DNA of 47,148 bases from Candidatus Methylomirabilis sp. (GTDB lineage: Bacteria; Methylomirabilota; Methylomirabilia; Methylomirabilales; JACPAU01). How positions within the stretch are numbered: position 1 is the first letter of the stretch; every line of letters starts with the position of its first letter. Positions 18,937 through 41,939 of this stretch are shown in pieces. The stretch spans positions 1 to 47,148 of the forward strand of contig DASYVA010000062.1 of assembly GCA_036000645.1 (NCBI GenBank), given 5' to 3'. The position numbers and the translations under genes were made by a program. The notes under the pieces were generated by a model that was not told the origin of the DNA, did no database searches, and worked only from the letters and a program-made list of their open reading frames with translations.

Positions 18937-18966
18937 TTGACACCTCCAGGTGCGCCCCCCCATTAT
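18937..18966 (+). promoter_or_regulatory. putative promoter of the aquaporin gene
   Basis: CCTTGACAC with TTGACA at 18937-18942, 18 nt spacer, CATTAT (18961-18966), about 70 nt upstream of ATG 19039. Confidence 0.5.
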
Positions 18967-19038
18967 CGGCCTGTTGCCCCGCGGCCCGCGGCCTCGGGCG
19001 CCCCCGCCCCCACTGCGCCATCCAAGGAGGCACAGCTC

Positions 19039-19704
19039 ATGAGCGCGTTCGTCGCGGAGCTGGTCGGGACCTTCACGCTCGTCTTCGTGGGTGCCGGCGC
19101 CATCATCCTGGACGCCCACACGCGTGGCGGCGTCGCGCTGCTCGGCATCGCCGTCGCCCACGGCCTTGCCCTCGGCGTCGCGGTCACCATCACCGGCCCC
19201 ACCTCCGGCGGGCACCTGAACCCCGTCGTCACGGCCGCCATGCTGGCCACGAAGCGGATCGCCCCCGGCAAGGCGGGAGGCTACATCGTCGCCCAGCTCC
19301 TGGGGGCCACGGTGGCCGGGGTCCTCCTGAAGGGACTCTATCCCGCCGAGGCGGTGGCCCGGAGTACGCTGGGGACCCCCACCCTCGGCCCCGGTGTCAC
19401 CTTCGGCCAGGGGATCGTCATCGAGGCGATCCTGACGTTCCTCCTCCTCTTCACCATCTTTGCGGTCGCGGTGGATCCGCGGGGGCCCCAGCAGATCGGC
19501 GGCTTCTGCATCGGGCTCACGGTCGCCTTCGACATCCTGGCCGGCGGGCCCCTGACGGGGGCCGCCATGAACCCGGCCCGGGCCTTCGGCCCGGCCCTGG
19601 CGGCCGGCTTCTGGGACAACCACCTCGTCTACTGGAGCGGCCCCGCCCTGGGAGGCCTGCTGGGGGCGTTCCTCTATGAGGGCCTGATTCTGCCCCGGAA
19701 GTAG
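19039..19704 (+). CDS. aqpZ: MIP-family aquaporin
   Basis: AAGGAGG lies 8 nt before ATG 19039. There are six TM segments. The first signature is HLNPVVT (NPV) and the second is AMNPARA (NPA). Confidence 0.95.
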   Translation: MSAFVAELVGTFTLVFVGAGAIILDAHTRGGVALLGIAVAHGLALGVAVTITGPTSGGHLNPVVTAAMLATKRIAPGKAGGYIVAQLLGATVAGVLLKGLYPAEAVARSTLGTPTLGPGVTFGQGIVIEAILTFLLLFTIFAVAVDPRGPQQIGGFCIGLTVAFDILAGGPLTGAAMNPARAFGPALAAGFWDNHLVYWSGPALGGLLGAFLYEGLILPRK

Positions 19705-19737
19705 CCCCCGGCGACCCCGGCCGGTGCCAGCCCCACC

Positions 19738-20763
19738 ATGACGATCCTCAGCGAACAGAAGCTCACCCGCCTCCGGGAGCTGCTCCCCCAGCACCCCCGG
19801 ATGCTCATCCTCACCCACGACAACCCCGATCCCGACTCCCTGGCCAGCGCTGCGGCCCTCCACTTCCTGCTGGCGGAGCTGTGCGGGGCCGAGGGCGTCC
19901 TCGCCTTTGGGGGAATCGTGGGACGCGCCGAGAACCGCGCCCTGCTGCGCTACCTCCCCATCAAAGCGCAGCCGGTGGAAGCCCTTTCCTTCGAGGAGTT
20001 CGACCTGGTCGCCCTGGTGGACACCCAGCCCCGCACCGGAAACAACTCCCTCCCCCCCGACCGGCTCCCCGGCATCGTCATCGACCATCACCCCCTGCGC
20101 CGCCAGACGCGGCAGGTGCCGTTCCGCGACATCCGGCGCGGCTACGGGGCCACCTCAACCATTCTCACCGAGTACCTGCAGGCCGCGGGGATCAGCTCCG
20201 AGGCCCGGCTGGCCACCGCCCTCTTCTACGCCATCCGCTCGGAGACGCAGGACCTCGGCCGCGAGGCCTCCCGGGCCGACGTGGAGGCGGCACGGTACCT
20301 CTACCCGTTCACGAACCGCCGTTTGCTCTCTCGGATCGAGTACTCGCGGGTCCCCCCCGAGTACTTCCGGGCCCTGGGCCGGGTCCTGAAGCGCGCCACG
20401 ATCCACGACGGCGTGGTCGTCTCCCGTCTGGGAGAGCTGGAGTACCCCGACATGGTGGCGGAGATGGCCGACCTCCTCCTCCGGCTGGAGGACGCGCGGT
20501 GGGCCATCTGCCTCGGGACCTACGGGGAGAGCCTCTTCCTGTCGCTCAGGACCTCGGAGGGGGACGTCAACGCCGGGGCGTTCATCCGGAGGGCGGTTGG
20601 GCGGACGGGGGCGGCCGGGGGACACGGCATGATGGCGGGAGGGCGGATCCGCCTCAAGGACCGGGGGGCGAAGGCAGTGGCCCGGCTGGAGGAGCGGCTG
20701 ATCCGGCGGTTCCTCCGGGCGCTCAAGATCCCGCCGGGCCCCGGCGTCCGGCTGGTTCCCTGA
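19738..20763 (+). CDS. DHH family phosphoesterase (NrnA-like)
   Basis: Motifs: HDNPDPDSLASA, VDT, VIDHH, and the DHHA1-type GGHGMMAGG. Confidence 0.85.
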   Translation: MTILSEQKLTRLRELLPQHPRMLILTHDNPDPDSLASAAALHFLLAELCGAEGVLAFGGIVGRAENRALLRYLPIKAQPVEALSFEEFDLVALVDTQPRTGNNSLPPDRLPGIVIDHHPLRRQTRQVPFRDIRRGYGATSTILTEYLQAAGISSEARLATALFYAIRSETQDLGREASRADVEAARYLYPFTNRRLLSRIEYSRVPPEYFRALGRVLKRATIHDGVVVSRLGELEYPDMVAEMADLLLRLEDARWAICLGTYGESLFLSLRTSEGDVNAGAFIRRAVGRTGAAGGHGMMAGGRIRLKDRGAKAVARLEERLIRRFLRALKIPPGPGVRLVP

Positions 20764-20769
20764 GCAGCG

Positions 20770-21432
20770 TCAGTTCCAGCGGCCGCCCTCCGCGGCGCAG
20801 TCGCCCCCGCCGTAACGCGCCAGCAGCGCCTCCGAGACCGCCGCCGTCACCAGGCCCAGGCGGTCCCCCAGGTCCAGGGTCTCCAGGATCCGCTGACGCT
20901 GGGCGGCCCCCACGACGACCACGGAGGCCACCCGGTCAATCAGCGCCGCGGGGCTGGGCGCCTCCGTCGCCAACCGGCTGAGCGCCCGCTCGCCCCGCCC
21001 GACCTCCCTCAGCAGACGCAGGTACGAAGCCGTGAGGGCCTCGAGGCCCCGCTGGATTGGGGCGGACCCGGCGTCGGGGAGCCGGTCCTCCAGCACGCGG
21101 CAACGGACCAGCCGATAGGCGCCGGGAGCGGGGAGCTCCTCCTCGATGAGGACCCGGGCGAACCCCTCCAGGAGGATATTGGACCTCCCGTCCGGCAGCC
21201 GCTCCGCCTCCACCACCTGCCCCGCCCCGGCCACGGTGTGGATCGGCGGCCGCCCGGAGTATTCCCGCTCCCACCCCGGCAGGAGCCTCACCACCACCAT
21301 CCGCTTCTCCCCCGCCAGACAGTCGGCCAGCATGGCCCGGTAGCGCGGCTCGAAGACGTGGAGCGGCAGGAGCGTATGGGGGAACAAAACCGTCTCGGGG
21401 AGGGGAAACAGCGGGAGGGTGAGCGGGGCCAC
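20770..21432 (-). CDS. stand-alone LON substrate-binding (Lon N-terminal) domain protein
   Basis: GTG 21432 is preceded by GAGGAG. LPLFPLPETVLFPHTLLPLHVFEPRYRAM is the classic Lon-N start. No AAA+ or protease domain follows. Confidence 0.8.
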   Translation of the reverse strand: MAPLTLPLFPLPETVLFPHTLLPLHVFEPRYRAMLADCLAGEKRMVVVRLLPGWEREYSGRPPIHTVAGAGQVVEAERLPDGRSNILLEGFARVLIEEELPAPGAYRLVRCRVLEDRLPDAGSAPIQRGLEALTASYLRLLREVGRGERALSRLATEAPSPAALIDRVASVVVVGAAQRQRILETLDLGDRLGLVTAAVSEALLARYGGGDCAAEGGRWN

Positions 21433-21440
21433 GCGACTCC

Positions 21441-22070
21441 TCAGCGGCGGAGACTCAGCCCCACGCCGTCCCGGAGGGGGAGGATGACGGTGAGGAGCTC
21501 GGGCGAAGCGTAGAGCAGGCGCGTGTACTCCTGCACGGCCCGGGTGCTGGGGGCGGGCGGCTCCTCCGTGGCCACTCGCCCGGACCACAGGAGGTTGTCG
21601 GTGATGAGCAGGCCGCCCGGCCGAAGCCGGGGCAGGAGCTTGGGGAAGGCGGGCGGGTACTGCTCCTTGTCTATATCATTGAAGATGAGGTCGAAGGGGC
21701 CCGGCGTCCGGTCGAGAAGCGCCAGGGCATCGCCCACTTCGAAGCGGACCCGGTCCGCGATCTCCGCCCGCCGGAAGACCTCGGCCGCAATCGCCGCGTT
21801 CTCCGCCGAGCCGTCCACGCAGAGCAGGGTGCCGTCCCGTTCCATTCCCCGCGCCAGCCAGAGCGCCGAGTAGCCGAACCCCGAGCCCACCTCCAGGATC
21901 CGGCGCGCCCGGACGAGCTGCGCGCACAGCTCGAGCAAGCGGCCGACCAGGGGCCCCACGATGGGAAACCCGCGCTCCGCCGCGGACGCCTCCAGCTCCC
22001 CGAACAGGGGATCGGGGCCCGCCGGCAGGCCCTGCAGGTACGCCTCGACGAGGGGAGGGAGGAGGGTCAG
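21441..22070 (-). CDS. class I SAM-dependent O-methyltransferase (caffeoyl-CoA OMT / YrrM-like); start codon unresolved
   Basis: Motifs: ILEVGSGFGYSALWLA, FDLIFNDIDK, GGLLITDNLLW. The only in-frame ATG/GTG/TTG upstream of the conserved N-terminus is GTG 22178, which would add about 36 Arg/Gly-rich residues and a 112-nt overlap. CTG 22070 overlaps the upstream stop (CTGA). Confidence 0.8.
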   Translation of the reverse strand: MTLLPPLVEAYLQGLPAGPDPLFGELEASAAERGFPIVGPLVGRLLELCAQLVRARRILEVGSGFGYSALWLARGMERDGTLLCVDGSAENAAIAAEVFRRAEIADRVRFEVGDALALLDRTPGPFDLIFNDIDKEQYPPAFPKLLPRLRPGGLLITDNLLWSGRVATEEPPAPSTRAVQEYTRLLYASPELLTVILPLRDGVGLSLRR

Positions 22071-22642
22071 TCCGCCTTGAGGATGGCCTTGACCGCGGCC
22101 ACCCGCCCCGCGAAGGCGGCGTCGGACAGGACCGGAACGGCGCCGCCGGTGGCGACCGGAGCCTCCAGGGTGACCCACGATTTACACCCCCGGTATTCTG
22201 GGGTCTCCACCACCTCCGTCGCCCGAGGGAGCCGGTGGACCCGCAGGAGCATCAAGTAGAGCGGCGTGCCGGGCCGGTAGTGGAAACGCATGTCCACGTA
22301 GGCGGGCGTCCAGAGGTGGTGCTCGGCGAGCTTGTGGAGGCGGGCGAGGTCGGTCGCTTCCAGCACCTCGCCGACCATCGCGTAGGTGTCCAGGACAATC
22401 CGCTCGACGGTCCAGGGCGGCGGAGCCGCGGCAGCGAAGTCCGCGTGAAACTCCGGCCGGACGTGCTCGCGCTGCTGGTGGACGTAGGTCGGGTAGAAGA
22501 CGAACTCGGGGTGATCCACCCGGAACTCTCCCCCCTCCTCCGCAATCCCCCCCTTGCGCAGAAGGACGATCTGCCTCCCCTCCCGCAAGGCGTTCACCAC
22601 CACCGCCCACTCCTTGAGCGCGATCCGATTCTCCTGGAGCAC
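22067..22642 (-). CDS. DUF1802 family protein
   Basis: GTG 22642 follows GGGAGGAGGGGG. ALKEWAVVVNALREGRQIVLLRKGGI.E...F and FYPTYVHQ match the DUF1802 pattern as I recall it. Confidence 0.7.
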   Translation of the reverse strand: MLQENRIALKEWAVVVNALREGRQIVLLRKGGIAEEGGEFRVDHPEFVFYPTYVHQQREHVRPEFHADFAAAAPPPWTVERIVLDTYAMVGEVLEATDLARLHKLAEHHLWTPAYVDMRFHYRPGTPLYLMLLRVHRLPRATEVVETPEYRGCKSWVTLEAPVATGGAVPVLSDAAFAGRVAAVKAILKAD

Positions 22643-22665
22643 GACGCCCCCTCCTCCCTCGCCCG

Positions 22666-22695
22666 GTGATACTCCATCCGCGGAGCGGGTGTCAA
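22666..22695 (-). promoter_or_regulatory. putative promoter of the DUF1802-OMT-LonN operon
   Basis: On the minus strand: CCTTGACAC (TTGACA 22695-22690), 18 nt spacer, TATCAC (22671-22666), about 24 nt upstream of GTG 22642. Confidence 0.4.
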
Positions 22696-22811
22696 GGCGC
22701 CGGGGGGATTTGCCTGGCTGCCCCCGGCAAGGGCCGTTATACTCGGCGGGCGGCGGACCCCCCCGGCGGCAACGGGCAGGCCCGAAGCCCCACGCGCACG
22801 CGGAGGATTGG

Positions 22812-24275
22812 ATGGAAGTCCGGAAGGGGCTCGTGGTCCTGGCCGTGTGCCTGGGGATGCTCCTCGCCGCCCTGGACGCCACCATCGTGGGGACCGCCAT
22901 GCCCACCGTCGCGGCCAGCCTGGGCGGCCTCCCCCTCTATGCCTGGGTCTTCTCCATCTACATGCTGGCCGCCACAACCTCCATGCCCCTCTTCGGGAAG
23001 CTCTCGGACCTCCACGGTCGGCGGCGCCTCTTCCTGGCCGCCATCGGGATCTTCACCGCCGGCTCCGCCCTCTGCGGGGGGGCGGCCTCGATGTCGCAGC
23101 TGATCGCGGCCCGGGCCATCCAGGGGCTCGGGGCCGGCGGCATCTTCGCGCTGTCGCAGGCCATCTTCGGGGACCTCTTCTCCCCCGCGGAGCGGGGACG
23201 GATGCAGGGCTACCTCGCCTCCGTCTGGGGCCTGAGCAGCATCGTGGGCCCGCTCCTCGGGGGGCTCATCGTGGATACGCTCGGCTGGCGCTGGACCTTC
23301 CTGGTGAACGTCCCCCTCGGGGCCTTCGCCGCCGTCATGATCCAGCATGGCATGACAGGGGCGCTCGCCCGCGGGAGCCGGCGCCCGCTGGATCTCCCCG
23401 GAGCCTTCGCCCTCACGGGTGCCATCCTGGCCCTCCTGCTGGCCGCGCTCCGCCTCGGAGAAACGGGGACCCTTGCCGCCCCCGGGACGCTATTCCCCCT
23501 CGCCCTCTTCGGCCTGCTGAGCGGGATCCTGCTCCACCTCGAGCGCCGCGCTCCGGAGCCGGTCCTGCCCCTCCGCCTCTTCGAGAGCCGGGCCTTCAGT
23601 GCCTCCATCCTCGTTGGCATCTTCTCGGGGGTGGGGATGTTCGGCGCCATCTCCTTCCTCCCCCTGTTCGTCCAGGGGGTGCTGGGCGGGAGCGCCACCG
23701 CCGCCGGCTCGGTCCTGACCCCCATGAGCCTCGGATGGTCCTCGGGCAGCACGCTCGGGGGACGGGTCGTCAACCGGACGGGCTACCGGGCGCTGGGCCT
23801 GACGGGGATGACCCTGATGGCCGGGGCGTACCTGCGCATCGCGGCCCTGACGGAGGGATCCACCCTCTGGGGGATCATCGGGACCGTGTTCGTCCTGGGC
23901 CTGGGCATGGGGTTCGTCACCGTGACGACCGTCGTGGCGGTCCAGAACGCGGTGCGGCGGGAGGACCTGGGCATCGCCACCACCGCTCCCTTTTTCTTCC
24001 GCAGCATCGGTGCCACCGTGGGAGTGGCGCTCATGGGGGCGATGCTGACGCGTCGCCTGGGAACCGGCGCCGGCGGCGCGCTCCTCCGCCTCGAACCCAC
24101 CCTCGCGCTCCAGGCGTTCGCGGGGCTGCGGGGCACCCTGGCCGCGGCCCTCTCCGCCGCCTTCGCCGTCGGCCTGGTCACCTGTTTCCTCGGCCTCGCC
24201 GCGAGTCTCCTGCTCCCGAACACGTCGCCCACGCGCGGCGCACCGGCCCCCGCCTCGCCGCGGCTCGAGGCATGA
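22812..24275 (+). CDS. MFS transporter, DHA2 (EmrB/QacA-like, 14-TMS type)
   Basis: ATG 22812 follows GGAGGA. Motifs: LDATIVGTAMP, GKLSDLHGRRRLF, RAIQGLGAGG. Confidence 0.9.
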   Translation: MEVRKGLVVLAVCLGMLLAALDATIVGTAMPTVAASLGGLPLYAWVFSIYMLAATTSMPLFGKLSDLHGRRRLFLAAIGIFTAGSALCGGAASMSQLIAARAIQGLGAGGIFALSQAIFGDLFSPAERGRMQGYLASVWGLSSIVGPLLGGLIVDTLGWRWTFLVNVPLGAFAAVMIQHGMTGALARGSRRPLDLPGAFALTGAILALLLAALRLGETGTLAAPGTLFPLALFGLLSGILLHLERRAPEPVLPLRLFESRAFSASILVGIFSGVGMFGAISFLPLFVQGVLGGSATAAGSVLTPMSLGWSSGSTLGGRVVNRTGYRALGLTGMTLMAGAYLRIAALTEGSTLWGIIGTVFVLGLGMGFVTVTTVVAVQNAVRREDLGIATTAPFFFRSIGATVGVALMGAMLTRRLGTGAGGALLRLEPTLALQAFAGLRGTLAAALSAAFAVGLVTCFLGLAASLLLPNTSPTRGAPAPASPRLEA

Positions 24276-24503
24276 CTCTCTCGCGCCGAGTCCAGGAATG
24301 ATATCGGGGGAGGACCCCCCACGCCCTATTCGGCGGGAAGCTCCAACGGCTTCAGAAGACCGACGCTTCCGGTAGGGCTCCGGCGACTCACCGGAACCAG
24401 TCGTCGATTGTCCGGAGACCGCCCCGGAGGGCCAAGCCAGCGGTGAGCCCGGCTGCCAGAGAGAGGAGGATCGGCCAGCGTCAGTCCCGGTTCATCGGCG
24501 TGC

Positions 24504-24746
24504 TCACCGGCTGTCCTTGAGTTGTTTGATCTCTTCGCGCAGGTCACGAACCTCTTGCGCTAACTGGGCCACCTCGCCGCCCCCCGCGCTTCTATGGCCG
24601 CCCATGCACATGAACGGCCGCCCTCCGCCCATCGCGCGGACCAGCGCGATGACGAACACGAGGGCGATCGACAAGCCAATCAGGGGGAAGATCCACCAGA
24701 ACCCTCCCATCGGCGGCCCCCACCACCCCGGTCCCCACATGGCCAT
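24504..24746 (-). CDS. small membrane protein with Trp/Gly-rich N-terminus, MCMGGH motif and C-terminal coiled coil
   Basis: ATG 24746 (or 24740) lies directly after GGAGAGGAGGAA. The product is MAMWGPGWWGPPMGGFWWIFPLIGLSIALVFVIALVRAMGGGRPFMCMGGHRSAGGGEVAQLAQEVRDLREEIKQLKDSR, with one TM helix. Confidence 0.55.
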   Translation of the reverse strand: MAMWGPGWWGPPMGGFWWIFPLIGLSIALVFVIALVRAMGGGRPFMCMGGHRSAGGGEVAQLAQEVRDLREEIKQLKDSR

Positions 24747-24897
24747 TTCCTCCTCTCCATCAGTGCCAAGGTCACCGTCTTCCCAATTTGCATCGGCAAT
24801 GCCAGTGAGTGGGAGCGACAATTCAACAGGTTAGGGGACAGCGTCCGGCTCCGGGGTGAGGACACCATGCCCCAGGCGGGGTGCCTGCGCCCCACCG

Positions 24898-25953
24898 CTA
24901 CGCGGCTCCGACCTCCGCGCGGACGCGGTCGAGGAGCGGCGCGAAGGCGGGATCGCCCGCCGTGAGATCCCGCGCCACGATCTCCACCTCGACACCGCTC
25001 TGCACCCCGAGGCCGAGCGCGATCGCCCGTCGGATCTGGCCCTGGTCCCAGACCCCCTTTCCCACCACGTGATCGGCCTTCCCGTAGTGCTTGAGGATCC
25101 CGAGACCCACCGCGTCCAACGCCACCGGGTCGGTGCCGGCCAGGATGCACCCGGGGCGCACCACGTCGCCGGACCAGGGGCCGCCGCTCGCCATGACCGT
25201 GAGGGCGTCGGCCACGTACAGGCGGGGGTGGACCGCCAGGTTCAGCTCGGCGACCACCTCCTCCCAGGCCGAGCCCCCGTAGGCCCAGGGCTTGTTCCGC
25301 GCGTGGACGACCCCGACCGTGTTCTTCAGGGCGAAGCTGTAGGAGGCCGAGCGGTGCGCCTTCAGGACCGGGACGCTGACGAGCCGCTCCGCCTCGTAGA
25401 CCGCCCGCGCGACGTGAAAGGCCGTGGCGTGGCGGGCCCGAGGCGGCCGGACCTCGACCCAGTCGCCCTCCTCGAGGGCCAGAAGATCGGCCCCGGCGGC
25501 CGCCGCGACGGCCGCCATCCCGGTGGCCTCCAGGTTCGGACGGGTCGGGAGGCTCACGACCGCGGACATGTCTCCCATGCTGAGGCGCGAGGCGCCGGTC
25601 TCCCTCAGCAGGGCGAGGAGCGCCGCCACCACGCGGGGATCGGTCGTTGCGGGCGGCGGCCTGCCGGACACGACGTTCGGCTTCACGAGAACCTGTCGCC
25701 CCCGGCAATCCAGGGCGGCCAGGCCGTCCACCAGGGCGACGGCCTCCCGAACGCCCGCCGCCACGCCGTCGGCGCGGACGATCGCCACGCGCCGTTTCGC
25801 GCCGACGGCGGCAGGCGGTACCGGGCGTGGCGGGACCACCTCCCCGCCGGGGGAGAAGAGAAACTGCCGCAGGACCGCGCGGCACTGGGGGAAGAAGAGC
25901 GCCGAAGCGGCGAGGCCGCCGAGGGCCAGAAGATGGCGGCGGGTCAGCCGCAC
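24898..25953 (-). CDS. DUF362 domain protein with twin-arginine signal
   Basis: GTG 25953 lies 1 nt after the ArsM::ArsN2 stop. The Tat motif is TRRHLLALGGLAASALF. DUF362-like blocks include VLVKPNVV....ATTDPRVV.ALL.LLRE.GA. Confidence 0.75.
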   Translation of the reverse strand: MRLTRRHLLALGGLAASALFFPQCRAVLRQFLFSPGGEVVPPRPVPPAAVGAKRRVAIVRADGVAAGVREAVALVDGLAALDCRGRQVLVKPNVVSGRPPPATTDPRVVAALLALLRETGASRLSMGDMSAVVSLPTRPNLEATGMAAVAAAAGADLLALEEGDWVEVRPPRARHATAFHVARAVYEAERLVSVPVLKAHRSASYSFALKNTVGVVHARNKPWAYGGSAWEEVVAELNLAVHPRLYVADALTVMASGGPWSGDVVRPGCILAGTDPVALDAVGLGILKHYGKADHVVGKGVWDQGQIRRAIALGLGVQSGVEVEIVARDLTAGDPAFAPLLDRVRAEVGAA

Positions 25954-25954
25954 C

Positions 25955-27202
25955 TTACAGGTCCTTCGCCATCAGGGCCGCAGAGGCGGGGCAGCACCCC
26001 GTGAGCTCCGGCGACGAGCGGAGGGCGGCGGGCACCGTCTCGCGCGGCACCCGGGTGAACTCCCAGGCTCGGCAGCGGGCCTCGATCGTCTCCGTGAGGA
26101 GATAGGCCCGCTTGACACCCCTGGCCCGGGCAACTGCCTCCAGCGCGCGGAAGAGGCGCTCGCCGATCCCCCGGTGCCGCGCGTCCGGCCGGACGACCAG
26201 CGAGCGGAAGAGGGCGACCTCGCCGGCCCGCTCCATCCCCACCCCCCCCACCACGGTCCCGGCCTCCTCCGCCACCAGGAAGTCCCCGAGGTGCTCCGCC
26301 ACGCCGGCCGTCGGGAGGCGCGCCTCCTCGAGCAGGGCGAGAATGGCCGGCAGATCCCCCGCCCCGGCCGCCCGGACCGTGGGCCCGTCCGCCCCGCCCG
26401 GTTTGCGCGCGGAGAAGCTCGCACTCCAGACCTTGCCGGCGAGATCCTCCGCCCGAACCCCGGAGGCCGCCCCGCATCCGCACGCCCCCTCCGGCGCCCC
26501 CGCCAGGGCCGCGACCTGTCCGGCCTCGTAGGGGAGGCGGGAGACGACCCGCACGTCCGCGAAGCCCGCCGCCGCGAGCCCGGCCACGTACTGCCCCTCG
26601 CTGATCGCGCCCGCGAGGCAGCTCGACCAGGCCGTGAGATCCGCCCGCACCGGCTCCGGCAAGCCCTCCGCGACCACGTCTGAGATCAGGAGCCGGCCTC
26701 CAGGCCGCAGGACCCGGTGGATCTCCCGAAAGACGGCGGGCTTGTCGGGCGAGAGGTTGATCACGCAGTTGCTGATAATCCAGTCCACCGAGGCATCCGT
26801 CACGGGCAGGCGCTCCGCCTCCCCCAGGCGGAACTCCACGTTGGTCTGTCCCGCCGCGGCGGCGTTCGCTTCGGCCCGCCGGAGCATCTCGGGGGTCATG
26901 TCCACTCCGATGACGCGCCCCGCAGGCCCCACGCGCTCCGCCGCCAACAGGCAGTCGATCCCCGCCCCGGAGCCGATGTCCAGGACCGTCTGCCCCGGCT
27001 CGACGCCGGCGAAGGCCAGGGGGTTGCCGCAGCCGAAGGCGCTCAGGACGGCCTGCGGCGGCAGGTCCTTCAGCTCGTCCACCCCGTACCCCGCCGCCTG
27101 GAACGTCACCGAGGGGGACGAACCACAGCATCCGCTCCCCTCCTGGACCGCCTGCGTGTAGCGCGCCCGGACTGCCGCCTTGATCTCCTCCTCAGTCCTC
27201 AT
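25955..27202 (-). CDS. arsM: fusion protein: arsenite S-adenosylmethionine methyltransferase (ArsM) N-terminal + ArsN2-type GNAT acetyltransferase C-terminal
   Basis: ATG 27202 follows GGGAGGA. ArsM part: the SAM motif VLDIGSGAGID and the conserved cysteines in GCCGS, FGCGNP, SNCVINL and SSCLAGA. ArsN2 part: DLPAILALLEEARLPTAGV, FLVAE, LFRSLVVRPDARHRGIGERL, and CPASAALMAKDL at the C-terminus. It is one uninterrupted ORF. Confidence 0.85.
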   Translation of the reverse strand: MRTEEEIKAAVRARYTQAVQEGSGCCGSSPSVTFQAAGYGVDELKDLPPQAVLSAFGCGNPLAFAGVEPGQTVLDIGSGAGIDCLLAAERVGPAGRVIGVDMTPEMLRRAEANAAAAGQTNVEFRLGEAERLPVTDASVDWIISNCVINLSPDKPAVFREIHRVLRPGGRLLISDVVAEGLPEPVRADLTAWSSCLAGAISEGQYVAGLAAAGFADVRVVSRLPYEAGQVAALAGAPEGACGCGAASGVRAEDLAGKVWSASFSARKPGGADGPTVRAAGAGDLPAILALLEEARLPTAGVAEHLGDFLVAEEAGTVVGGVGMERAGEVALFRSLVVRPDARHRGIGERLFRALEAVARARGVKRAYLLTETIEARCRAWEFTRVPRETVPAALRSSPELTGCCPASAALMAKDL

Positions 27203-27714
27203 CCTGATCCTCCCGCCCGGCGAGTCGCTCCGGGCCCCCCGGAGACCGGGCCACACCCCTCGGGCCCACACCCGTCCTGCCACCGCGTCACGGCCTCGAC
27301 GAGGCCCTCCAGCGTCTTCAGCACCGCCTCCCGCTCCACCCGGGCCAGAGGGGAAAGGAGCGCGCGCTGGGTCTCCACCAACTCCGCCCGGATCCGACCG
27401 AGGAGGCTCCTGCCCCGGGGCGTGATCGCGATCCGAACCTCCCGGCGGTCCCCCGTGCCCCGCCGCCGGCGGGCTAGGCCCTTCCGCTCCAGGGGCTCCA
27501 GGATGCGCGTCACGGTGCTGACCGCCAGGAAGAGGTGCCGGGCCAGGGCCGTGACAGTCAGCTCGCCGCCGTCCGTCAGGGCATCCAGGGCGTAGCACTG
27601 GGTCACGGAGAGCCCGTGGCAGCAGATGGCGTTCCGGTCGCGGAACTGGTAGCGCCGCGACAGCTCCTTCGTGATCCGGTGCATCCGTTCGGCCGCGGCC
27701 GTGACCTCGTCCAT
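27199..27714 (-). CDS. MarR family transcriptional regulator, cysteine-rich
   Basis: ATG 27714 follows GAGGGGG. The wHTH is LSVTQCYALDALTDGGELTVTALARHLFLAVSTVTRILEPLERKGLARR. Its stop overlaps the arsM start (ATGA type). Confidence 0.85.
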   Translation of the reverse strand: MDEVTAAAERMHRITKELSRRYQFRDRNAICCHGLSVTQCYALDALTDGGELTVTALARHLFLAVSTVTRILEPLERKGLARRRRGTGDRREVRIAITPRGRSLLGRIRAELVETQRALLSPLARVEREAVLKTLEGLVEAVTRWQDGCGPEGCGPVSGGPGATRRAGGSG

Positions 27715-27723
27715 AGCCCCCTC

Positions 27724-27754
27724 AGAGATTAGTTGTATCTTACAAGTAATCTCT
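27724..27754. promoter_or_regulatory. AT-rich palindromic operator candidate in the marR-arsM promoter region
   Basis: AGAGATTAGTTGTA-tct-TACAAGTAATCTCT has 14-nt arms with 13/14 complementarity. It lies 10 nt upstream of the MarR ATG (27714) and 13 nt downstream of a minus-strand CCTTGACAC (-35, 27772-27767). Confidence 0.5.
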
Positions 27755-27893
27755 CCCACCCCCCGGTGTCAAGGAAAATCTCGGGGAGCCGTGGAGGGGA
27801 GCCGGTGGGTTTCAGCGAGCAGGGATGATCACGCCCGCTCCAGGCCGTCGCCGGAGGGGGGGAGCCGTCAGGGCCGGCAAGGCGAGGCCACCC

Positions 27894-28190
27894 TCAATCC
27901 CCATCCCTGCCCCGCTCCCAGCGGCGGCGGGCGTAGTAGCACCGATCGCAGAATCCGCGCCGGGGATCCTCAGCGTCAATCCACATGTCGAGCGCCGGGA
28001 ACAGTTCTCGACATCCCTGGCAGGGAAGGCGGTCTTGCCGCTCCCGGGTCGGGCGGGCCGGGGCCACGACGCTCCGGGGAAGGACCGGCTGGACGAGGAC
28101 GCGGCCGTCCGCCAGGGTGCGGACCGCCAGGGTCTGGCTTCCCCAGCGGACGACGTACGCGCGCCCCGGGCGCCCCCGCATCCTGGTCAT
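27894..28190 (-). CDS. small zinc-ribbon protein (hypothetical, 98 aa)
   Basis: ATG 28190 lies 2 nt after the phosphatase stop. The motif is CQGC-x22-CDRC. The reading frame is G/C3-rich. Confidence 0.5.
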   Translation of the reverse strand: MTRMRGRPGRAYVVRWGSQTLAVRTLADGRVLVQPVLPRSVVAPARPTRERQDRLPCQGCRELFPALDMWIDAEDPRRGFCDRCYYARRRWERGRDGD

Positions 28191-28192
28191 GC

Positions 28193-28846
28193 CTAGAAGA
28201 AGCCCCGGCCGAGCCCCCGAACCTGGATGAGCTCCCGGTCCGGCAGCTTCAGGCAAGTCAGCTTGCCCCCGTACACGCAGCCGGTGTCGATCCCGATCCG
28301 GTCCTCCCGCATCAGGACCTCCCGCATCGGGGTATGGCCGAAGACGACCGGCTTCTCAAAGCGGCCAATGAAGTGGAAGAACTCGTGCCGGATCCAGACC
28401 AGGTCCTCCAGGGTCTGCCGGTCCAGGGGGACCAGCGGCCGGATCCCCGCATGCACGAAGAGGAAGTCCGGTGTGTCGTAGTAGGGGCGGAGGTTCTTGA
28501 AGAAGGTGAGATGGGCTTCCGGAATGACGGGCGACTCCCCATAGGACCGGAGGGTCTCCTCCCCCCCGTTGAGGAGATAGAGGGCCTCCTGCTTTCCTTC
28601 CAGGTAGTCCAGCAGCATCTTCTCGTGGTTCCCGATCAGGAAGGTGGTCCGCCCCGGCAGCTCCCGCACCAGCTCCACCACCTCCCGAGACTGGGGCCCC
28701 CGGTCGATGTAATCGCCGATGAAGACCAGCTCGTCCGCGGAGCCGGGCCCGATCTTGTCCAGGAGGCGCTGCAGCGGGATGAGACACCCGTGCACGTCCC
28801 CGATGACATAGCGGGTCCCACCCGCTGCGCTCCCCTCGCTCATCAT
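28193..28846 (-). CDS. PPP-family serine/threonine protein phosphatase (PrpA/ApaH-like metallophosphoesterase)
   Basis: Motifs: GDVHGC, GDYIDRGP, GNHE, VHAG, GHTP. Confidence 0.9.
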   Translation of the reverse strand: MMSEGSAAGGTRYVIGDVHGCLIPLQRLLDKIGPGSADELVFIGDYIDRGPQSREVVELVRELPGRTTFLIGNHEKMLLDYLEGKQEALYLLNGGEETLRSYGESPVIPEAHLTFFKNLRPYYDTPDFLFVHAGIRPLVPLDRQTLEDLVWIRHEFFHFIGRFEKPVVFGHTPMREVLMREDRIGIDTGCVYGGKLTCLKLPDRELIQVRGLGRGFF

Positions 28847-28884
28847 CCCTCCCGCGGGCCCCGCGCCGGCGCCCGTGCCGCCCT

Positions 28885-28914
28885 ACTCTACGGGAAACGT
28901 CGGAGAGGGGTCAA
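28885..28914 (-). promoter_or_regulatory. putative promoter of the phosphatase / zinc-ribbon operon
   Basis: On the minus strand: TTGACC (28914-28909), 18 nt spacer, TAGAGT (28890-28885), about 39 nt upstream of ATG 28846. Confidence 0.45.
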
Positions 28915-28994
28915 GGCGAGCGGGAGCTGGCGGCAGAAAAAGCACACCCCGGCGGGGCTCCCCCCGCCGGGGTGTGCGCGTGGTCCTTCCGCAA

Positions 28995-29201
28995 TCAGGC
29001 GGTCTTGGCGACGTTGGCGGCCTGCTTGCCCTTCGGCCCGTCCACGACGTCGAACTCCACCTGCTGGCCTTCGCTCAGCGTCTTGAAGCCCTCGCCCTGG
29101 ATCGCCGAGTAGTGGACGAAGACATCCGGCCCATCACTGCGCGAGATGAAGCCGTAGCCCTTCGCGTCGTTGAACCACTTCACGGTTCCCGTGCTGCGCA
29201 C
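28995..29201 (-). CDS. cspA: cold-shock protein (CspA family)
   Basis: GTG 29201 follows GGAAGGGGGGGAGAG. The product has [15 protein letters not shown]...DVFVHYSAI. Length is 68 aa. Confidence 0.95.
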
Positions 29202-29288
29202 TGCGCTCTCCCCCCCTTCCTGTCTGGAACTGTCGGGGTCCTGTGGCCCCGAGCTGGCCCGGCCCCTGTGCGGACCGGTTCGACCCAC

Positions 29289-29330
29289 AAAAAAAACCGC
29301 AAGAGCGTCAAGGTGCCCGGCTCTTGCGGT
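29289..29330 (-). terminator. intrinsic terminator hairpin + U8 between the MFS gene and cspA, inside the predicted cspA leader
   Basis: An 11-bp stem (ACCGCAAGAGC 29296-29306 / GCTCTTGCGGT 29320-29330) with a 13-nt loop is followed on the minus strand by eight T (29296-29289). It lies 87 nt upstream of GTG 29201 and downstream of the TTGACA at 29412. Confidence 0.6.
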
Positions 29331-29382
29331 CTCGCCGTACCCTTCCTCTGCTCCTGTCGAAGTTGCGACCAAAACAGCCGAG

Positions 29383-29412
29383 AAAGTAGAGCAGCCGGGG
29401 GGAAGCTGTCAA
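29383..29412 (-). promoter_or_regulatory. putative cspA promoter
   Basis: On the minus strand: TTGACA (29412-29407), 18 nt spacer, TACTTT (29388-29383). No better box pair exists between the hairpin and the start codon. Confidence 0.4.
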
Positions 29413-29471
29413 GCAGATTCTTTGCCCGGCCAGGATTCCCGCGGCGGCGCCCGGGACGCCCGGCAGACCTG

Positions 29472-30680
29472 CTACCGACGCGGCGCCCCTCCGGCGGGCC
29501 GGGGGAGCCGGAGGGGGGCGACCCGCTCGAGGAGCATCGCCAGGCACGCCCCCCCCAGCAGGACCAGCGCGAAGAAGGTAAAGCAGGCCTTGAGGCCGAA
29601 CGCCTCGGCGACCCAGCCGCCCAGGACCGCCGAGAGGGAGGCGATCCCCTCGTTCACCCCGAAGATCACCCCCATGGTGGTGCTCTGGAGACCCTGGCGG
29701 CTCAGTTCCGTCGCCTCGGCGTGGATGACCGGGCGCACCGCCAGCAGAACGAACCCCAGGAGGCCGCTGACCAGGAAGGCTCCCGCCGGCGAGGCCACCC
29801 GGGTCATGACCAGCGTGAGGAGCCCACCCGCGGCGAGGAGGAGGGAGAGAATGAGGGTCCGCCCGTGCCGGTCCGAGAGGCGCCCGGCCACCGGCTGGGA
29901 GAGAACTCCCAGGCCGTAGAAGACGGAGACCAGAAGCCCCGTTGCCCCGGACCCCAGACCCAGGACCTGGGCGGCGAAGAGCGGGATGAAGACCACGATC
30001 CCCTTCTGCCCCATGATCCGGAAGGTGGAGGTCAGGAGGAGGAGGAGCAGCGGCCGATTCTGGAGAATCCCGACCCGGAAGTTCCCGGCCAGTTCCCGGA
30101 GGCTCCACGGCCGCGGCGCCCGCTCGGGGAGGACCACGAACACCGCAACCGCGACCAGGAGGCCCGGGAGCGCCACGAGCTGGATCGCCTGGCGCCAGCC
30201 CATGTAGAGGGCCGCGACCCCGGTCACGAGGGGGTAGAGGCTCATCCCGAGGCTCCCCCCCACCCCGTGGCAGCCGATCGCGAAGCCCCGCTGGTCGGCA
30301 AACTCTTCTGCCAGGATCGCCACCGCCTGGGGGTGGTGGGTGCTCGCCCCCACCCCGGCCAGCACCATCAGGACGAGGATGCTGAGGTACCCTTGGGCCT
30401 GGCCGAAGGCGACGAAGGCGGCCGCCGAGAGCCCCAGCCCGGCCGCGAAGAAGATCCGGTTCTTCCCGCTCAGGTCGGAGAGGAGGGCGAGGGGGAGCTG
30501 GAGGACCGAAGAGGTGAGATTGTAGACGGCGACCAGGACACCGGCCTGCAGGGCGCCCAGGCCCAGCTCCCCCATCACCAGGGGGAGCAGGGGGAGGAAG
30601 AAGACTGCCCCCCCGTCGGTCGCCCCGTGGGCTGCCGTGATGGCGGTGAGCTTCAGGCCCCTGCTCGCGTTCCGGGTCAT
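29472..30680 (-). CDS. MFS transporter (12-TMS type)
   Basis: The 402-aa polytopic protein has the loop motifs LSDLSGKNR and GRLSDRHGR. Confidence 0.9.
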   Translation of the reverse strand: MTRNASRGLKLTAITAAHGATDGGAVFFLPLLPLVMGELGLGALQAGVLVAVYNLTSSVLQLPLALLSDLSGKNRIFFAAGLGLSAAAFVAFGQAQGYLSILVLMVLAGVGASTHHPQAVAILAEEFADQRGFAIGCHGVGGSLGMSLYPLVTGVAALYMGWRQAIQLVALPGLLVAVAVFVVLPERAPRPWSLRELAGNFRVGILQNRPLLLLLLTSTFRIMGQKGIVVFIPLFAAQVLGLGSGATGLLVSVFYGLGVLSQPVAGRLSDRHGRTLILSLLLAAGGLLTLVMTRVASPAGAFLVSGLLGFVLLAVRPVIHAEATELSRQGLQSTTMGVIFGVNEGIASLSAVLGGWVAEAFGLKACFTFFALVLLGGACLAMLLERVAPLRLPRPAGGAPRR

Positions 30681-30701
30681 CGCCCCCCGGGGCCCCGCGC
30701 G

Positions 30702-31496
30702 CTAATAGGTGACGCCGCGGGTGGCCCCACCGTCCACCGCGATGGTCGTCCCGGTCACGTAGGAGGCCCGCTCCGAGGCCAGGAAGGTGACCATGGCCGC
30801 CACCTCCTCCGGTTCGGCGATCCGCCCGAGCGGCATCCGGGCGCCTTCTTCCCGGATGGCCACCTCCAGGCTCTTCCCCTCGGCAGCCGCCCGCGCTGCG
30901 ACCCGCTTTTCCCAGCGGGAGGTGCGGGTGGTGCTGGGGTGCACGGCCGTGACCAGGATGTTGTGCGGCGCGCCCAGGTCCGCCAGGGCCTTGGTGAAGT
31001 TCACGATCGCAGCGTTGCCCGTCCCGCCCGTCATGAAGGTCGGCACGGGGTTGCGGGCGGCGACGCCGACGATATTGATAATCCGCCCCCACCGCTGTCG
31101 TTGCATGTGGGAGAAGACCTCCCGGCTCAGGCGGATGGTGGCGAAGAGCTTCCCGTTCCAGTCGGCCCAGTACTGCTCGTCCGGAACGGTGAGGAAGTCC
31201 CCCCGCTGCGTGCTGCCGGCGTTGTTGACCAGAATGTCCACGCGCCCGAAGGTCGCCACCGTCCGGGCTGCCACCGTCCGGACCCCGTCACCCTGGGCCA
31301 AGTCGGCCACCACGGCCAACACCTCGGCGCCCGTCTCCGCCCGGATCCGCCCGGCCGCCTCCTCCAGGGTGGTCGCGGTCCGGGCGCAGATGCTGAGGCG
31401 TGTCCCCTCCAGGGCCAACGCGCGGGCGATGGCCAGGCCGATCCCCTGGCTCGCCCCCGTCACCAGTGCCACCTTCCCCTTCAGGCCGAGATCCAT
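30702..31496 (-). CDS. SDR-fold protein lacking the Ser-Tyr-Lys catalytic residues
   Basis: ATG 31496. TGASQGIGLA and NNAG are present. An ungapped alignment to the SDR at 12710-13507 gives S->G, Y->G and K->N (NIVGVAARNPVPTFMTGGTGNAAIV versus NIASIAGQLGAATSPPYSVSKGGVI). Confidence 0.85.
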   Translation of the reverse strand: MDLGLKGKVALVTGASQGIGLAIARALALEGTRLSICARTATTLEEAAGRIRAETGAEVLAVVADLAQGDGVRTVAARTVATFGRVDILVNNAGSTQRGDFLTVPDEQYWADWNGKLFATIRLSREVFSHMQRQRWGRIINIVGVAARNPVPTFMTGGTGNAAIVNFTKALADLGAPHNILVTAVHPSTTRTSRWEKRVAARAAAEGKSLEVAIREEGARMPLGRIAEPEEVAAMVTFLASERASYVTGTTIAVDGGATRGVTY

Positions 31497-31506
31497 CCGG
31501 TCTCCT

Positions 31507-32208
31507 TCACGCGAAGAGGGGGAGCGGGTCCTCCAGGCGCAGCGCGTCCTGGACGTAGAAGGCCTGGCCATACTTCGCGCCGATGAGCGCCCCGTAGTAC
31601 CCGGCGGTAGCCTCGAGGCGACTCGGGAAGAAGGGAGGGCGGTCGGTCCGGTTGAATTGGGAGGCGTGCGCGCGCATCGCCTCGATCGCCTCGGGGAACT
31701 CCTCGTCCACCGGGACGATGAAGGTGGGGCGGAAGTAGGGGGCCAGGAAGTAGTAGAAGACCTTCTTGACGACGTGGGGCTTCCCCTGGGCCGGGAACTT
31801 CTCCAGGTGGGCGAAGTTCGCGGCGTGGCTCGCCAGGTGACCGCCCGTGATGTGGTCGGCGTGGCCGCGGCCCCGGCCCGGCTCCAGGCCGTAGTAGGGG
31901 GCGAGGACCACCGCCGGCCGGTACTTCCGGATCAGGGAGGCCACGGCCACGCGATTGTCGAAGGAGTCCTCGAGGCGCGTGTCCCCCAGGTTCAGGATCT
32001 CGAAGGCGTCCACCTTGAGGCCGGCCGCGGCCTCCGCCGCCTCCTTCCGCCGCTGGTCGGGGGTCCCGCTCCCCATGTCCCCCTCCGTCAGGCAGAGGAT
32101 TCCGGTCCGATGGCCCCGCTTCTTCATCTTCAGGAGGAATGCCCCGGTCCCGATCTCGGCGTCGTCGGGATGGGCCCCAATGCTCAGGAAGTCCAGCGCT
32201 GTCGGCAT
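31507..32208 (-). CDS. PIG-L/LmbE family deacetylase
   Basis: Motifs: IGAHPDDAEIG, and HADH further on. Length is 233 aa. Confidence 0.85.
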   Translation of the reverse strand: MPTALDFLSIGAHPDDAEIGTGAFLLKMKKRGHRTGILCLTEGDMGSGTPDQRRKEAAEAAAGLKVDAFEILNLGDTRLEDSFDNRVAVASLIRKYRPAVVLAPYYGLEPGRGRGHADHITGGHLASHAANFAHLEKFPAQGKPHVVKKVFYYFLAPYFRPTFIVPVDEEFPEAIEAMRAHASQFNRTDRPPFFPSRLEATAGYYGALIGAKYGQAFYVQDALRLEDPLPLFA

Positions 32209-32229
32209 CCGCGCTCTCCTCGATGGGGG

Positions 32230-32715
32230 TCAGCCCCCCACCTCGGGCAGGGGGAAAATCTCGGTGGCCAGCTTCTCCCCGGTGACGGTGAGACGGGCCA
32301 CGGAGCGGGGCAGGCCGAAGCGCCGGGGCCCGGCCCCCCCGGGGTTCAGGAACAGGATCCCGTCGTGCACCGCCCGGTAGGGACGATGCGTGTGGCCGAA
32401 GCAGACCGCGTGGGGGCGGACCCGCCTCAGCAGGTCGCGGACGGCCGGGTCCGGGGCCTCCGGCCGGCCGATCTGGTGGAGCAACAAGAGGCGGGCCGTC
32501 CCCACCCGCTCCACCCGGTGCCAGGGATGCCTTTCGTCCAGGACTCCCCGGTCGGCGTTCCCCATGACCGCCCGGACCGGCGCCACAAGCGCCAGCGCCG
32601 CCAGCACCCCCTCGTCCCCGATGTCCCCCGCATGCAGGATCAGGCCGACGCCGGCGAAGAGGCGGAAGACAGCCGGGTCCAACCGGCCGTGGGTATCCGC
32701 GATGAGGCCGACCAG
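32230..32715 (-). CDS. YfcE/MJ0936-like metallophosphoesterase; non-canonical or unresolved start
   Basis: Motifs: LHAGDIG, GNAD and GHTH. The in-frame metal motif I (GLIADTHG) lies upstream of the first canonical start (TTG 32682). The only plausible initiator before it is CTG 32715. Confidence 0.7.
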   Translation of the reverse strand: MVGLIADTHGRLDPAVFRLFAGVGLILHAGDIGDEGVLAALALVAPVRAVMGNADRGVLDERHPWHRVERVGTARLLLLHQIGRPEAPDPAVRDLLRRVRPHAVCFGHTHRPYRAVHDGILFLNPGGAGPRRFGLPRSVARLTVTGEKLATEIFPLPEVGG

Positions 32716-32838
32716 GTGCCGCCCGCCCCGTCCTCCGGAGCTAGCAGGTGAAGCCCCGATCGCTCTCCACCCCTATCCCGGCGTCCCCCACCCCGTCTTG
32801 GGATGCGGAGCACGCCGTCCCATGCCACGGACCCCTCC

Positions 32839-33738
32839 TCACCGGAAAAACACCTCCCGCTCCCCGCTCCGGAGGCTTACCTTCAGGCGCTCCTCTTCGC
32901 GACGGATCGTGAGGGTCACCTGCTCCCCCGCGCGGTACTTCCACAGCTCCTCGTAGAGGTCGCGGCGGCCGCTCACACTGCAGAACCCGACCTCCCGGAT
33001 CCGGTCCCCCGGTTTCAGGCCGCCGACCTCCGCGGGTCCGCCGGGGACCAGGCCGGAGATGAGCACCTCCCCCTCGTCGCCCCGCACGTAGCATCCCAGC
33101 CAGGCGCGGTGCGGCCGGCTGACGATCCCCCCGTGCTCCAGCAGCTCGAGCCGGTGCAGCCGGTAGGCCTCCACGGGGATGGCCAGGCTGGCCTGGCCGA
33201 CCCCCTCCAGGGTCAGCGAGACGCTTCCCACCATCAGGCCCCGGCTGTCGAAGAGGGGCCCGCCGCCGTACCCGGGGTTCTCCGCGGTGGAGACGATGGC
33301 GCGATCCAGCATGTACTCCCACTCCGCGTCGAACTCCCCCAGGTAGGTGACCAACCCCCCGCTCCCCCGCCGCTCAGCCTGGCCGGTGCTCCCCACCGCA
33401 AAGACCGGGTCCCCGAGCGTGAGATCCAGGGACGAGCCCATCCGAAGGGCCAGGAGGCCCGCCTCCTCCACCCGCAGGAGGGCCAGACCGCTGTCGTAGT
33501 CCTGGGCAGCCACGCCCGCCTCGACCGTCCGACCGTCCGTGAGGCCCACGGTGATCTCCTCCGCGCCCAACACCAGGTAATTGACGGTGAGGATATAGCC
33601 GCGGCCATCCACCACGGCCCCGCTTCCCATCCGCTCCTCCCCCAGGATGGGGATCGAGCGGTGTCCTTCCCGGATCCGGACGGCCACGGCGACCGTCCCG
33701 GGGAGGACGTCCTGGATGAGGTCCGGGGGGGCGTCCAT
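32839..33738 (-). CDS. HtrA/DegP-like trypsin-fold + PDZ protein lacking the catalytic triad (paralogue 1)
   Basis: The domain order and blocks match HtrA: GSGAVVD..GYILTVNYLV, DSGLALLRV, AENPGYGGGPLFD, SLAIPV, and the PDZ GLVPGGPAEVGGLKPGDRI. However His->Tyr, Asp->Gly and Ser->Gly. Confidence 0.85.
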   Translation of the reverse strand: MDAPPDLIQDVLPGTVAVAVRIREGHRSIPILGEERMGSGAVVDGRGYILTVNYLVLGAEEITVGLTDGRTVEAGVAAQDYDSGLALLRVEEAGLLALRMGSSLDLTLGDPVFAVGSTGQAERRGSGGLVTYLGEFDAEWEYMLDRAIVSTAENPGYGGGPLFDSRGLMVGSVSLTLEGVGQASLAIPVEAYRLHRLELLEHGGIVSRPHRAWLGCYVRGDEGEVLISGLVPGGPAEVGGLKPGDRIREVGFCSVSGRRDLYEELWKYRAGEQVTLTIRREEERLKVSLRSGEREVFFR

Positions 33739-33753
33739 GGGCCGTCCCGCCCC

Positions 33754-41920: not shown

Positions 41921-41939
41921 TCCTCGGGAGAATCCACTG

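Follow-up and report, generated by a model that had tools for sequence, protein, structure and literature searches.

A fusion of an ArsM-type arsenite methyltransferase with an ArsN2-type acetyltransferase in a MarR-headed operon of Candidatus Methylomirabilis

The window considered here is a stretch of 47,148 nt (positions 1 to 47,148 of contig DASYVA010000062.1, assembly GCA_036000645.1) from a Candidatus Methylomirabilis sp., and the gene in question encodes the arsenite methyltransferase ArsM and an acetyltransferase of the ArsN2 type as a single polypeptide. It stands in the middle of a compact three-gene operon, between a gene for a MarR-family regulator and one for an exported DUF362 protein (Table 1). 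ArsN is said in reviews to have been first found by Chauhan et al. in 2009, and the function of ArsN2 has been open ever since. Nadar et al. (2019, PMC6465285) divided arsN into arsN1, which acetylates the glutamate analogue arsinothricin, and arsN2, a clade nearer the glutamate N-acetyltransferases; that work solved ArsN1 and explicitly left ArsN2 aside. A first-pass annotation of this DNA, made from its letters alone, had stated that the substrate of ArsN2 is not established, which agrees with the literature (PMC6465285, PMC13163355), and as late as 2026 a genome paper leaves the role of ArsN2 open. Two reviews (PMC6205960, PMC12607644, citing Chauhan 2009) describe arsN as at times fused with arsC or arsD and its precise function as not elucidated, and report that ArsN raised resistance to inorganic arsenic (arsenate) in E. 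coli in dependence on other ars components.

The fusion gene is one unbroken open reading frame (ORF) of 415 codons plus a stop, as the first-pass annotation had described without giving its strand; on the minus strand it opens with an ATG at 27202 and closes with the stop codon at 25955-25957. The mechanical ORF reaches upstream to 27598, and we take the ATG at 27202 as the start because it shares bases with the upstream gene's stop codon (ATGA) and is the one used in public gene calls. The linker between the halves is about eight residues long and follows 'SAR', the point where unfused ArsMs stop, and the motif RKPGGADG lies at about residues 266-273 (roughly nt 26384-26407).

Table 1. Positions of the operon's genes, the parts of the fusion and the candidate operator in the window
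Feature	Coordinates	Strand	Basis
DUF362 protein, 351 aa, twin-arginine-type signal (MRLTRRHLLALGG...)	24898..25953	-	start 1 nt after fusion stop
ArsM-ArsN2 fusion, 415 aa + stop	25955..27202	-	ORF; same frame in L001 and L002; best 120 database matches all fusions
ArsN2 GNAT domain, aa 275-415	25958..26380	-	NF040501; AlphaFold2 (AF2) model; N-acetylglutamate synthase (NAGS) structural matches
Linker KPGGADGP, aa 267-274	26381..26404	-	AF2 strand 258-266, then first GNAT strand 275-278
ArsM domain, aa 1-268	26399..27202	-	NF008823, PDB sequence matches, Foldseek, cysteine conservation
MarR-family regulator, 171 aa	27199..27714	-	Pfam MarR, NCBIfam; stop overlaps fusion start (ATGA)
Inverted repeat, 14 nt, 3-nt spacer (AGAGATTACTTGTA aga TACAACTAATCTCT)	27724..27754		candidate MarR operator

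The junction between the two halves is intact in every source compared. A JGI metagenome contig (L001) matches window positions 20918-37202 at 99.86% identity, gapless and with 23 mismatches over 16.3 kb. A Logan contig of run SRR11829739 (L002), an independent assembly, matches positions 19519-29118 at 99.82%, also gapless. Over the fusion gene these contigs show three substitutions and no insertions or deletions relative to the window. At the protein level the window and the public contigs differ at two positions, L53 (A in the contigs) and E355 (G in the contigs). The third-position GC of the gene is 0.83-1.0 in each 30-codon block, the linker-spanning blocks included. In a search of a 5.8-billion-protein collection, both domain types were present in all of the best 120 matches; 118 of these are full-length fusions (393-476 aa) that keep the frame open across the junction, and two are fragments. 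The stop or frameshift that the first-pass annotation allowed for at the junction is thus absent, the same fusion is found in other genomes, and an artefact of assembly or frameshift is rejected on the two independent assemblies with the same frame, the 118 full-length homologues and the continuous coding signal.

These homologues come from JGI, ENA, NCBI and Logan sources, and public data hold at least 118 distinct clusters of the fusion at 90% identity. Submitters have labelled them candidate division NC10, Methylomirabilales, Candidatus Methylomirabilis or Candidatus Acidoferrum; the nearest named relatives are NC10/Methylomirabilales bins at 79-90% identity, so that the window most likely belongs to this phylum. 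Fusions of this kind are frequent among metagenome bins of NC10 and Chloroflexota and among those labelled Acidobacteriota. Their automatic names in NCBI cover one half of the protein, either 'arsenite methyltransferase' or 'arsenic resistance N-acetyltransferase ArsN2', and JGI gives a double COG name, acetyltransferase/methyltransferase. Because of the one-half names, surveys of arsM and arsN may miscount such fusions.

The N-terminal half is predicted to be a complete As(III) S-adenosylmethionine (SAM) methyltransferase of the short type. In an NCBIfam scan its score for NF008823, the arsenite methyltransferase model, is 291.3 bits, where the curated threshold is 263 bits, and residues 2-268 align with model positions 2-268 of 272, so the complete ArsM domain claimed at first reading passes over the model's full length. 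Pfam places Methyltransf_31/25/11 and then Acetyltransf_1/7 along the fusion protein. The SAM motif VLDIGSGAGID (residues 73-83) is invariant among 60 aligned fusions, and the cysteine motifs are GCCGS (C25/C26), FGCGNP (C58), SNCVINL (C146) and SSCLAGA (C195). Across the 118 fusions, C58, C146 and C195 are conserved in 100%, C84 in 99%, C25/C26 in 97% and C241 in 96%. A PDB sequence search with this half returned CrArsM (5evj, 4.9e-34) and CmArsM (4fr0, 5.6e-32), and ArsM structures (4kw7, 5evj) align with it cysteine to cysteine at FGCG (C58), SNCV (C146) and CLAGA (C195). All four CmArsM cysteines (C44, C72, C174 and C224) have counterparts, the pairing of C25/C26 with C44 resting on a loose alignment.

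Structural prediction gives a matching picture. The AF2 model of the whole protein has a mean predicted local distance difference test score (pLDDT) of 80 and is poorly defined only at the N-terminal cysteine loop (residues 22-60) and at 237-244. With this full-length model, Foldseek ranked 4fr0, 4kw7, 6cx6 and 5evj first (E about 1e-18, probability 1.0; 4fr0, E 2.8e-18), and because it returned methyltransferases only, the GNAT domain was modelled separately. Set against known ArsM proteins (CmArsM, 4FR0/4FS8; CrArsM, 5EVJ; the short bacterial PRK11873 type), the fusion shares the SAM motif, the four cysteine positions and the fold, whereas it alone adds a C-terminal GNAT domain, has a regulator of the MarR rather than the ArsR type and has no adjoining arsenic efflux gene in the window.

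Family models and predicted structure identify the C-terminal half as a complete GNAT-superfamily acetyltransferase of the ArsN2 type with a NAGS-like fold. The ArsN2 model NF040501, whose curated cut-off is 125 bits, aligns with residues 283-413; the score is 130.2 bits when the whole protein is scanned and 133.3 bits for the domain by itself, in line with the complete ArsN2-like GNAT proposed at the outset. The next-best acetyltransferase model, PRK07757, reaches 40 bits and the ArgA/NAGS models 29-33 bits; a generic GNAT or ArgA identity, which would have told against the original proposal, is therefore rejected, with ArsN2 ahead by about 90 bits. The protein carries LFRSLVVRPDARHRGIGERL at residues 331-350 and the C-terminal motif CPASAALMAKDL, and all the motifs quoted in the first-pass annotation, those of the ArsM half and the linker included, are present as quoted. 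Within the domain are the acetyl-CoA motif RHRGIG and a C-terminal motif CPxSAxxM that contains Cys404. Cys404 is conserved at 97% when the domain is aligned with 116 stand-alone ArsN2 representatives, and the family positions D283, LL, LP, LxRS, RGxG, LLT and R are retained as well; the CPxSAxxM cysteine motif is, on this alignment, a hallmark of the whole ArsN2 family. A second cysteine lies directly before Cys404 in the window's clade (C403-C404) and directly after it in the other fusion clade.

The AF2 model of the GNAT domain alone has a pLDDT of 92, and its best structural matches are NAGS GNAT domains, led by that of Neisseria (2r8v; TM-score 0.85, E 6.6e-12), which is also the best PDB sequence match of the domain. 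M. tuberculosis Rv2747 (5yo2, 5yge) and Vibrio NAGS (3e0k) are among the further top matches, and structures of phosphinothricin acetyltransferase (PAT) appear only from rank 23 downward. Such a fold fits the definition of arsN2 as the clade nearer glutamate N-acetyltransferases (PMC6465285). The domain thus shares with other ArsN2 proteins the NF040501 pass, the NAGS-like fold and the conserved residues including CPxSAxxM; most family members, however, are stand-alone proteins of about 145-160 aa with a single cysteine, whereas the window domain is fused behind ArsM and carries the vicinal pair C403-C404. ArsN1 (PpArsN1) and ArsN2 proteins are both GNAT acetyltransferases known from arsenic gene clusters, but the clades differ, ArsN1 being PAT-like and ArsN2 NAGS-like, and no ArsN1 model matches the GNAT domain at E ≤ 0.01 in the NCBIfam scan.

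The MarR regulator of the operon carries the invariant motif YQFRD.N..C and, with it, a vicinal pair of cysteines; the window protein also has a C-terminal CGPEGCG. Most MarR relatives have a C-terminal CC pair. Upstream of marR, the inverted repeat is rich in A and T against a genomic GC content of about 70%. On one side of it is a TTGACA box (27767-27772), on the other the marR start codon; the box was found by eye, and a sigma-70 promoter scan of the operon region gave no match under its own criteria. A cysteine-rich marR lies directly upstream of the fusion or of an arsN2-arsM pair at five other loci (L083-L086 and L005), and the palindrome core TTGyA-N3-TrCAA recurs at the same place upstream of marR in all five, where the MarR proteins are only 34-75% identical. 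The regulator and conserved palindrome could represent an arsenic sensor of the MarR family and its operator, outside the ArsR family; the literature searched for MarR together with arsM held nothing relevant. Relatives whose fusion proteins show 79-84% identity retain the operon arrangement and the wider synteny, DUF362 included. Downstream of the DUF362 gene, an ORF of about 68 aa (24504-24710, minus strand) with a W/G-rich hydrophobic N-terminus and a charged C-terminal tail is present in public gene calls and has no family match.

Beyond the window, the fusion occurs in a second clade (L083-L085; 444-476 aa, 54-58% identical) with the same MarR type upstream and with no DUF362 gene. At L084 this fusion is embedded in an arsenic island with ArsR, Acr3, an ArsC of the low-molecular-weight phosphatase (LMWP) type, an ArsD-AhpD fusion, a second ArsR, ArsP and thioredoxin. 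The ArsD-AhpD gene (L084 10750-11385), an ArsD metallochaperone fused to an AhpD-core domain, adjoins genes for an extracytoplasmic function (ECF) sigma factor, a DGC-domain protein, ArsR, a split ArsP and thioredoxin. The second clade also has a small AhpD/CMD-like gene between marR and the fusion (L084 7587-7985; L083 and L085 about 7696-7990). In all three loci (L083, L084, L085) this gene contains an in-frame TGA within a C-Y-P-TGA motif, and it probably encodes a CxxU selenoprotein; gene callers split it into a 43-aa ORF and a downstream piece, which is a separate 51-aa ORF in L084 only. The window has no AhpD/CMD-like gene.

The two enzymes are also found as separate neighbors. At one locus (L003) arsR is followed by arsM (239 aa), a 3-nt gap and arsN2 (144 aa); at another (L092) arsM (247 aa, 40% identical, with the same cysteine motifs) is followed by a 12-nt gap, arsN2 and arsR; and at a third (L005) the order is cysteine-rich marR, arsN2, arsM. 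The genes arsM and arsN2 thus recur as adjacent separate genes in both orders, and other lineages, too, have the module of marR, arsM and arsN2, in which the two enzymes are fused in some cases and encoded by separate neighbors in others. The unfused ArsM of L003 ends '...VRARKSERR*', and the Anaerolineales fusion L006 reads on '...ITARKPAQP...'. Because unfused ArsMs end at '...ARK' and fusions run on with 'ARKP' and a linker, the loss of a stop codon between neighbors is the obvious origin, and we infer that the fusion arose in this way from adjacent arsM and arsN2.

The Anaerolineales protein bears on how often this happened. It has 391 aa, lies behind an ArsR gene and is 44% identical to the window protein. 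Among its best 120 database matches, the sole fusions are itself, its close full-length relatives P0271 (85%) and P0272 (63%) and the more distant P0335 and P0340. The others are stand-alone ArsMs of 237-366 aa; in their ArsM part the six nearest, P0273-P0278, show 80-88% identity to the L006 protein. For two of these six the loci were examined (P0275, at L088 and L089; P0278, at L090), and they contain no ArsN2 gene. The ArsN2 domain of L006 is 40% identical to that of the window, and many stand-alone ArsN2 proteins are 45-52% identical to the latter. Since L006 is nested among unfused ArsMs and its ArsN2 domain is more distant than stand-alone ones, the fusion appears to have arisen at least twice, in NC10-type clades and in Anaerolineales.

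ArsN2 itself readily acquires partners. A HMMER search with the ArsN2 domain gave 2,525 clusters (50% identity) at E ≤ 1e-10; among the best 150 representatives 116 are stand-alone proteins of 135-210 aa, 33 have at least 230 aa and one is a fragment. Domain scans of 20 of the 33 longer proteins revealed ArsN2-ArsC and ArsC-ArsN2 (LMWP type), MarR-ArsN2 and double GNATs, and further partners including a FAD monooxygenase, an ATP-grasp enzyme, a hydratase, generic methyltransferases and, in one protein, GspH after ArsN2; a few showed the ArsN2/GNAT part only. The ArsM-ArsN2 architecture appears in this family set as P0032 and the fragment P0222. Among the stand-alone ArsN2 genes sampled, that of P0122 overlaps an ArsC gene upstream of it. 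ArsN2 is therefore often found together with proteins that bind As(III) through cysteines (ArsC, ArsD, ArsM) and is not restricted to ArsM. The fusion follows the same principle as other ars fusions in which small arsenic proteins are joined (ArsN-ArsC/ArsD, ArsR-ArsC, Acr3-ArsC, AqpS-ArsC, ArsRM; PMC6205960, PMC10190100), the difference being that the partner of ArsN2 here is a methyltransferase. It is, in that sense, one more case of the known tendency of ars proteins, and of ArsN2 especially, to fuse.

Fusions of ArsM to ArsR and to SelD have already been described. The first-pass annotation was aware of no description of the present architecture. The same holds for the literature searched, which excludes most subscription journals and in which we found no description of an ArsM-ArsN fusion; two global arsM surveys do not mention it either. 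In the databases the architecture is no novelty, as the clusters counted above already sit there under automatic names.

What, then, might the two halves do together? As far as sequence can tell, the protein lacks no feature expected of an active ArsM or of an ArsN2, and we regard functional coupling of the halves as plausible. The explanation we favor, with reasonable though by no means strong confidence, is a genuine fusion in a MarR operon in which ArsM methylates As(III) and ArsN2 acetylates an arsenic-bearing or arsenic-thiol amino acid nearby. In this scheme As(III) or methylarsenite would bind the vicinal cysteines of MarR, which would then leave its palindromic operator. The ArsM half would hold As(III) on C146 and C195 and methylate it from SAM, with C25/26 and C58 serving as relay cysteines as in CmArsM. 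The ArsN2 half would use acetyl-CoA to N-acetylate an amino-acid-like amine, with the invariant Cys404 most likely holding a trivalent arsenic moiety. Its probable substrate would be an amino acid that bears arsenic, or an arsenic-thiol adduct of an amino acid, encountered beside the methylation site, and not a free methylarsenical. The tether would keep the two activities close together in a 1:1 ratio.

Chemically, the ArsN2 step is where this mechanism is weakest. The products of ArsM, mono-, di- and trimethylarsenicals (MAs, DMAs, TMAs), have no amino group, so successive action of the two halves on the same small molecule is impossible unless that molecule is an amino-arsenical or an adduct. 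The NAGS-like fold is that of enzymes which acetylate free amino acids at their alpha-amino group. Given this fold, the invariant cysteine, the amine-free ArsM products and the reported protection of E. coli by ArsN against inorganic arsenic, a substrate of the amino-acid type that carries or binds trivalent arsenic is most likely, rather than a methylarsenical as such; it need not be arsinothricin.

Besides the missing amine, several observations count against the favored explanation. ArsN2 fuses with many partners, so this fusion may reflect only co-expression. Among 80 listed ArsM loci from species-representative genomes, a biased set, just three have ArsN2 within 6 kb; that scan consists mostly of ArsM-only loci, is informative through L003, L005 and L006, and is no census of the fusion. 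The ArsN2 score lies just 5-8 bits or so above the NF040501 cut-off. Both activities are predictions from sequence and modeled structure, and any contact between the two active sites in the fusion is putative. Finally, no Acr3, ArsB, ArsC, ArsR, ArsD or ArsP gene was found in the window. When the window was searched by tblastn with the Acr3, ArsC, ArsR, ArsD, ArsP and thioredoxin of L084, the MarR gene was the sole match, and the only arsenic gene beside the ArsN2 half in the window is its own ArsM half.

The most serious alternative is that two independent arsenic-tolerance activities became joined through gene adjacency and are merely co-expressed, with no shared substrate and no channelling. 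The ease with which ArsN2 fuses with other proteins makes this quite possible: 33 of the best 150 representatives reach at least 230 aa, nearly all of the 20 scanned have an extra domain of varied kind, and ArsC-ArsN2 pairs also occur as overlapping genes. The short linker, the fact that unfused ArsMs end exactly at the junction and the absence of an amine from methylarsenicals agree with it as well. What tells against it is recurrence, since the fusion has at least two apparently independent origins and the unfused pair is met again with the genes in either order, often accompanied by a cysteine-rich MarR regulator of the same kind. This pattern points to selection for the pairing of arsM and arsN2, beyond chance adjacency, and weighing both sides we hold the alternative to be possible yet doubtful. 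The first-pass annotation had argued that methylation and N-acetylation act on the same or successive arsenical substrates; its reading of the gene is supported, but the shared substrate is a hypothesis, for which the repeated fusion and recurrent adjacency speak and against which the varied partners of ArsN2 and the amine-free methylarsenicals count.

In a bolder form of the coupled scheme, cysteine-rich MarR, ArsM and ArsN2 would make up an undescribed two-step arsenic pathway. A cysteine of the Cys404 type would hold a trivalent arsenical, and ArsN2 would N-acetylate an arsenic amino acid or arsenic-cysteine adduct made or consumed at the ArsM site, in a mercapturate-like manner, under a new arsenic-sensing class of MarR that replaces ArsR. 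We consider this full version speculative and, taken whole, unlikely.

A link to arsinothricin, in which the ArsM half would make arsinothricin from hydroxyarsinothricin and the ArsN2 half would N-acetylate it for self-resistance or detoxification, is improbable. It draws on the glutamate N-acetyltransferase fold of ArsN2, arsinothricin being a glutamate analogue (PMC6465285), and on a partial match to the model of the ArsM of arsinothricin biosynthesis. That match to NF040538, however, reaches 160 bits against a cut-off of 500, the GNAT domain matches no ArsN1 model, no radical-SAM gene of the ArsL type was found among the window genes, and the radical-SAM gene near the L084 fusion is of the maturase type, not ArsL or ArsS. 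ArsN is also reported (PMC12607644) to protect E. coli against inorganic arsenic. We therefore disfavor arsinothricin biosynthesis. The last alternative, that a sequencing or assembly error merged two genes or that the C-terminal part is an ordinary arginine-pathway acetyltransferase, has practically no chance of being right, being already refuted by the identical frame in two independent assemblies, the homologues from four sources, the uninterrupted coding signal over the junction and the 133 bits for ArsN2 against 29-33 bits for the ArgA/NAGS models.

Repeated fusion and conserved adjacency narrow the search for the function of ArsN2 to a step that handles As(III) or methylarsenite. As a single-polypeptide construct for arsenic speciation work, the fusion offers a concrete handle on that function. 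The MarR regulator and its conserved operator suggest, in addition, where an arsenic sensor outside the ArsR family may be sought.

The remaining genes of the window are chromosomal housekeeping genes: an amidase, phosphoenolpyruvate carboxykinase, short-chain dehydrogenases/reductases (SDRs), an LD-carboxypeptidase, an ABC transporter and TldD/PmbA. About 6 kb from the operon, at 18937-19704 on the plus strand, lies a gene for a channel of the aquaporin/MIP family; such channels conduct arsenite in other bacteria. A gene at 18387-18692 on the minus strand encodes a 101-aa RNA recognition motif protein of eukaryote type (RRM_1, E 1e-22). At 40355-43466 on the plus strand, the TldD/PmbA-type metallopeptidases are encoded by two adjacent paralogous genes.

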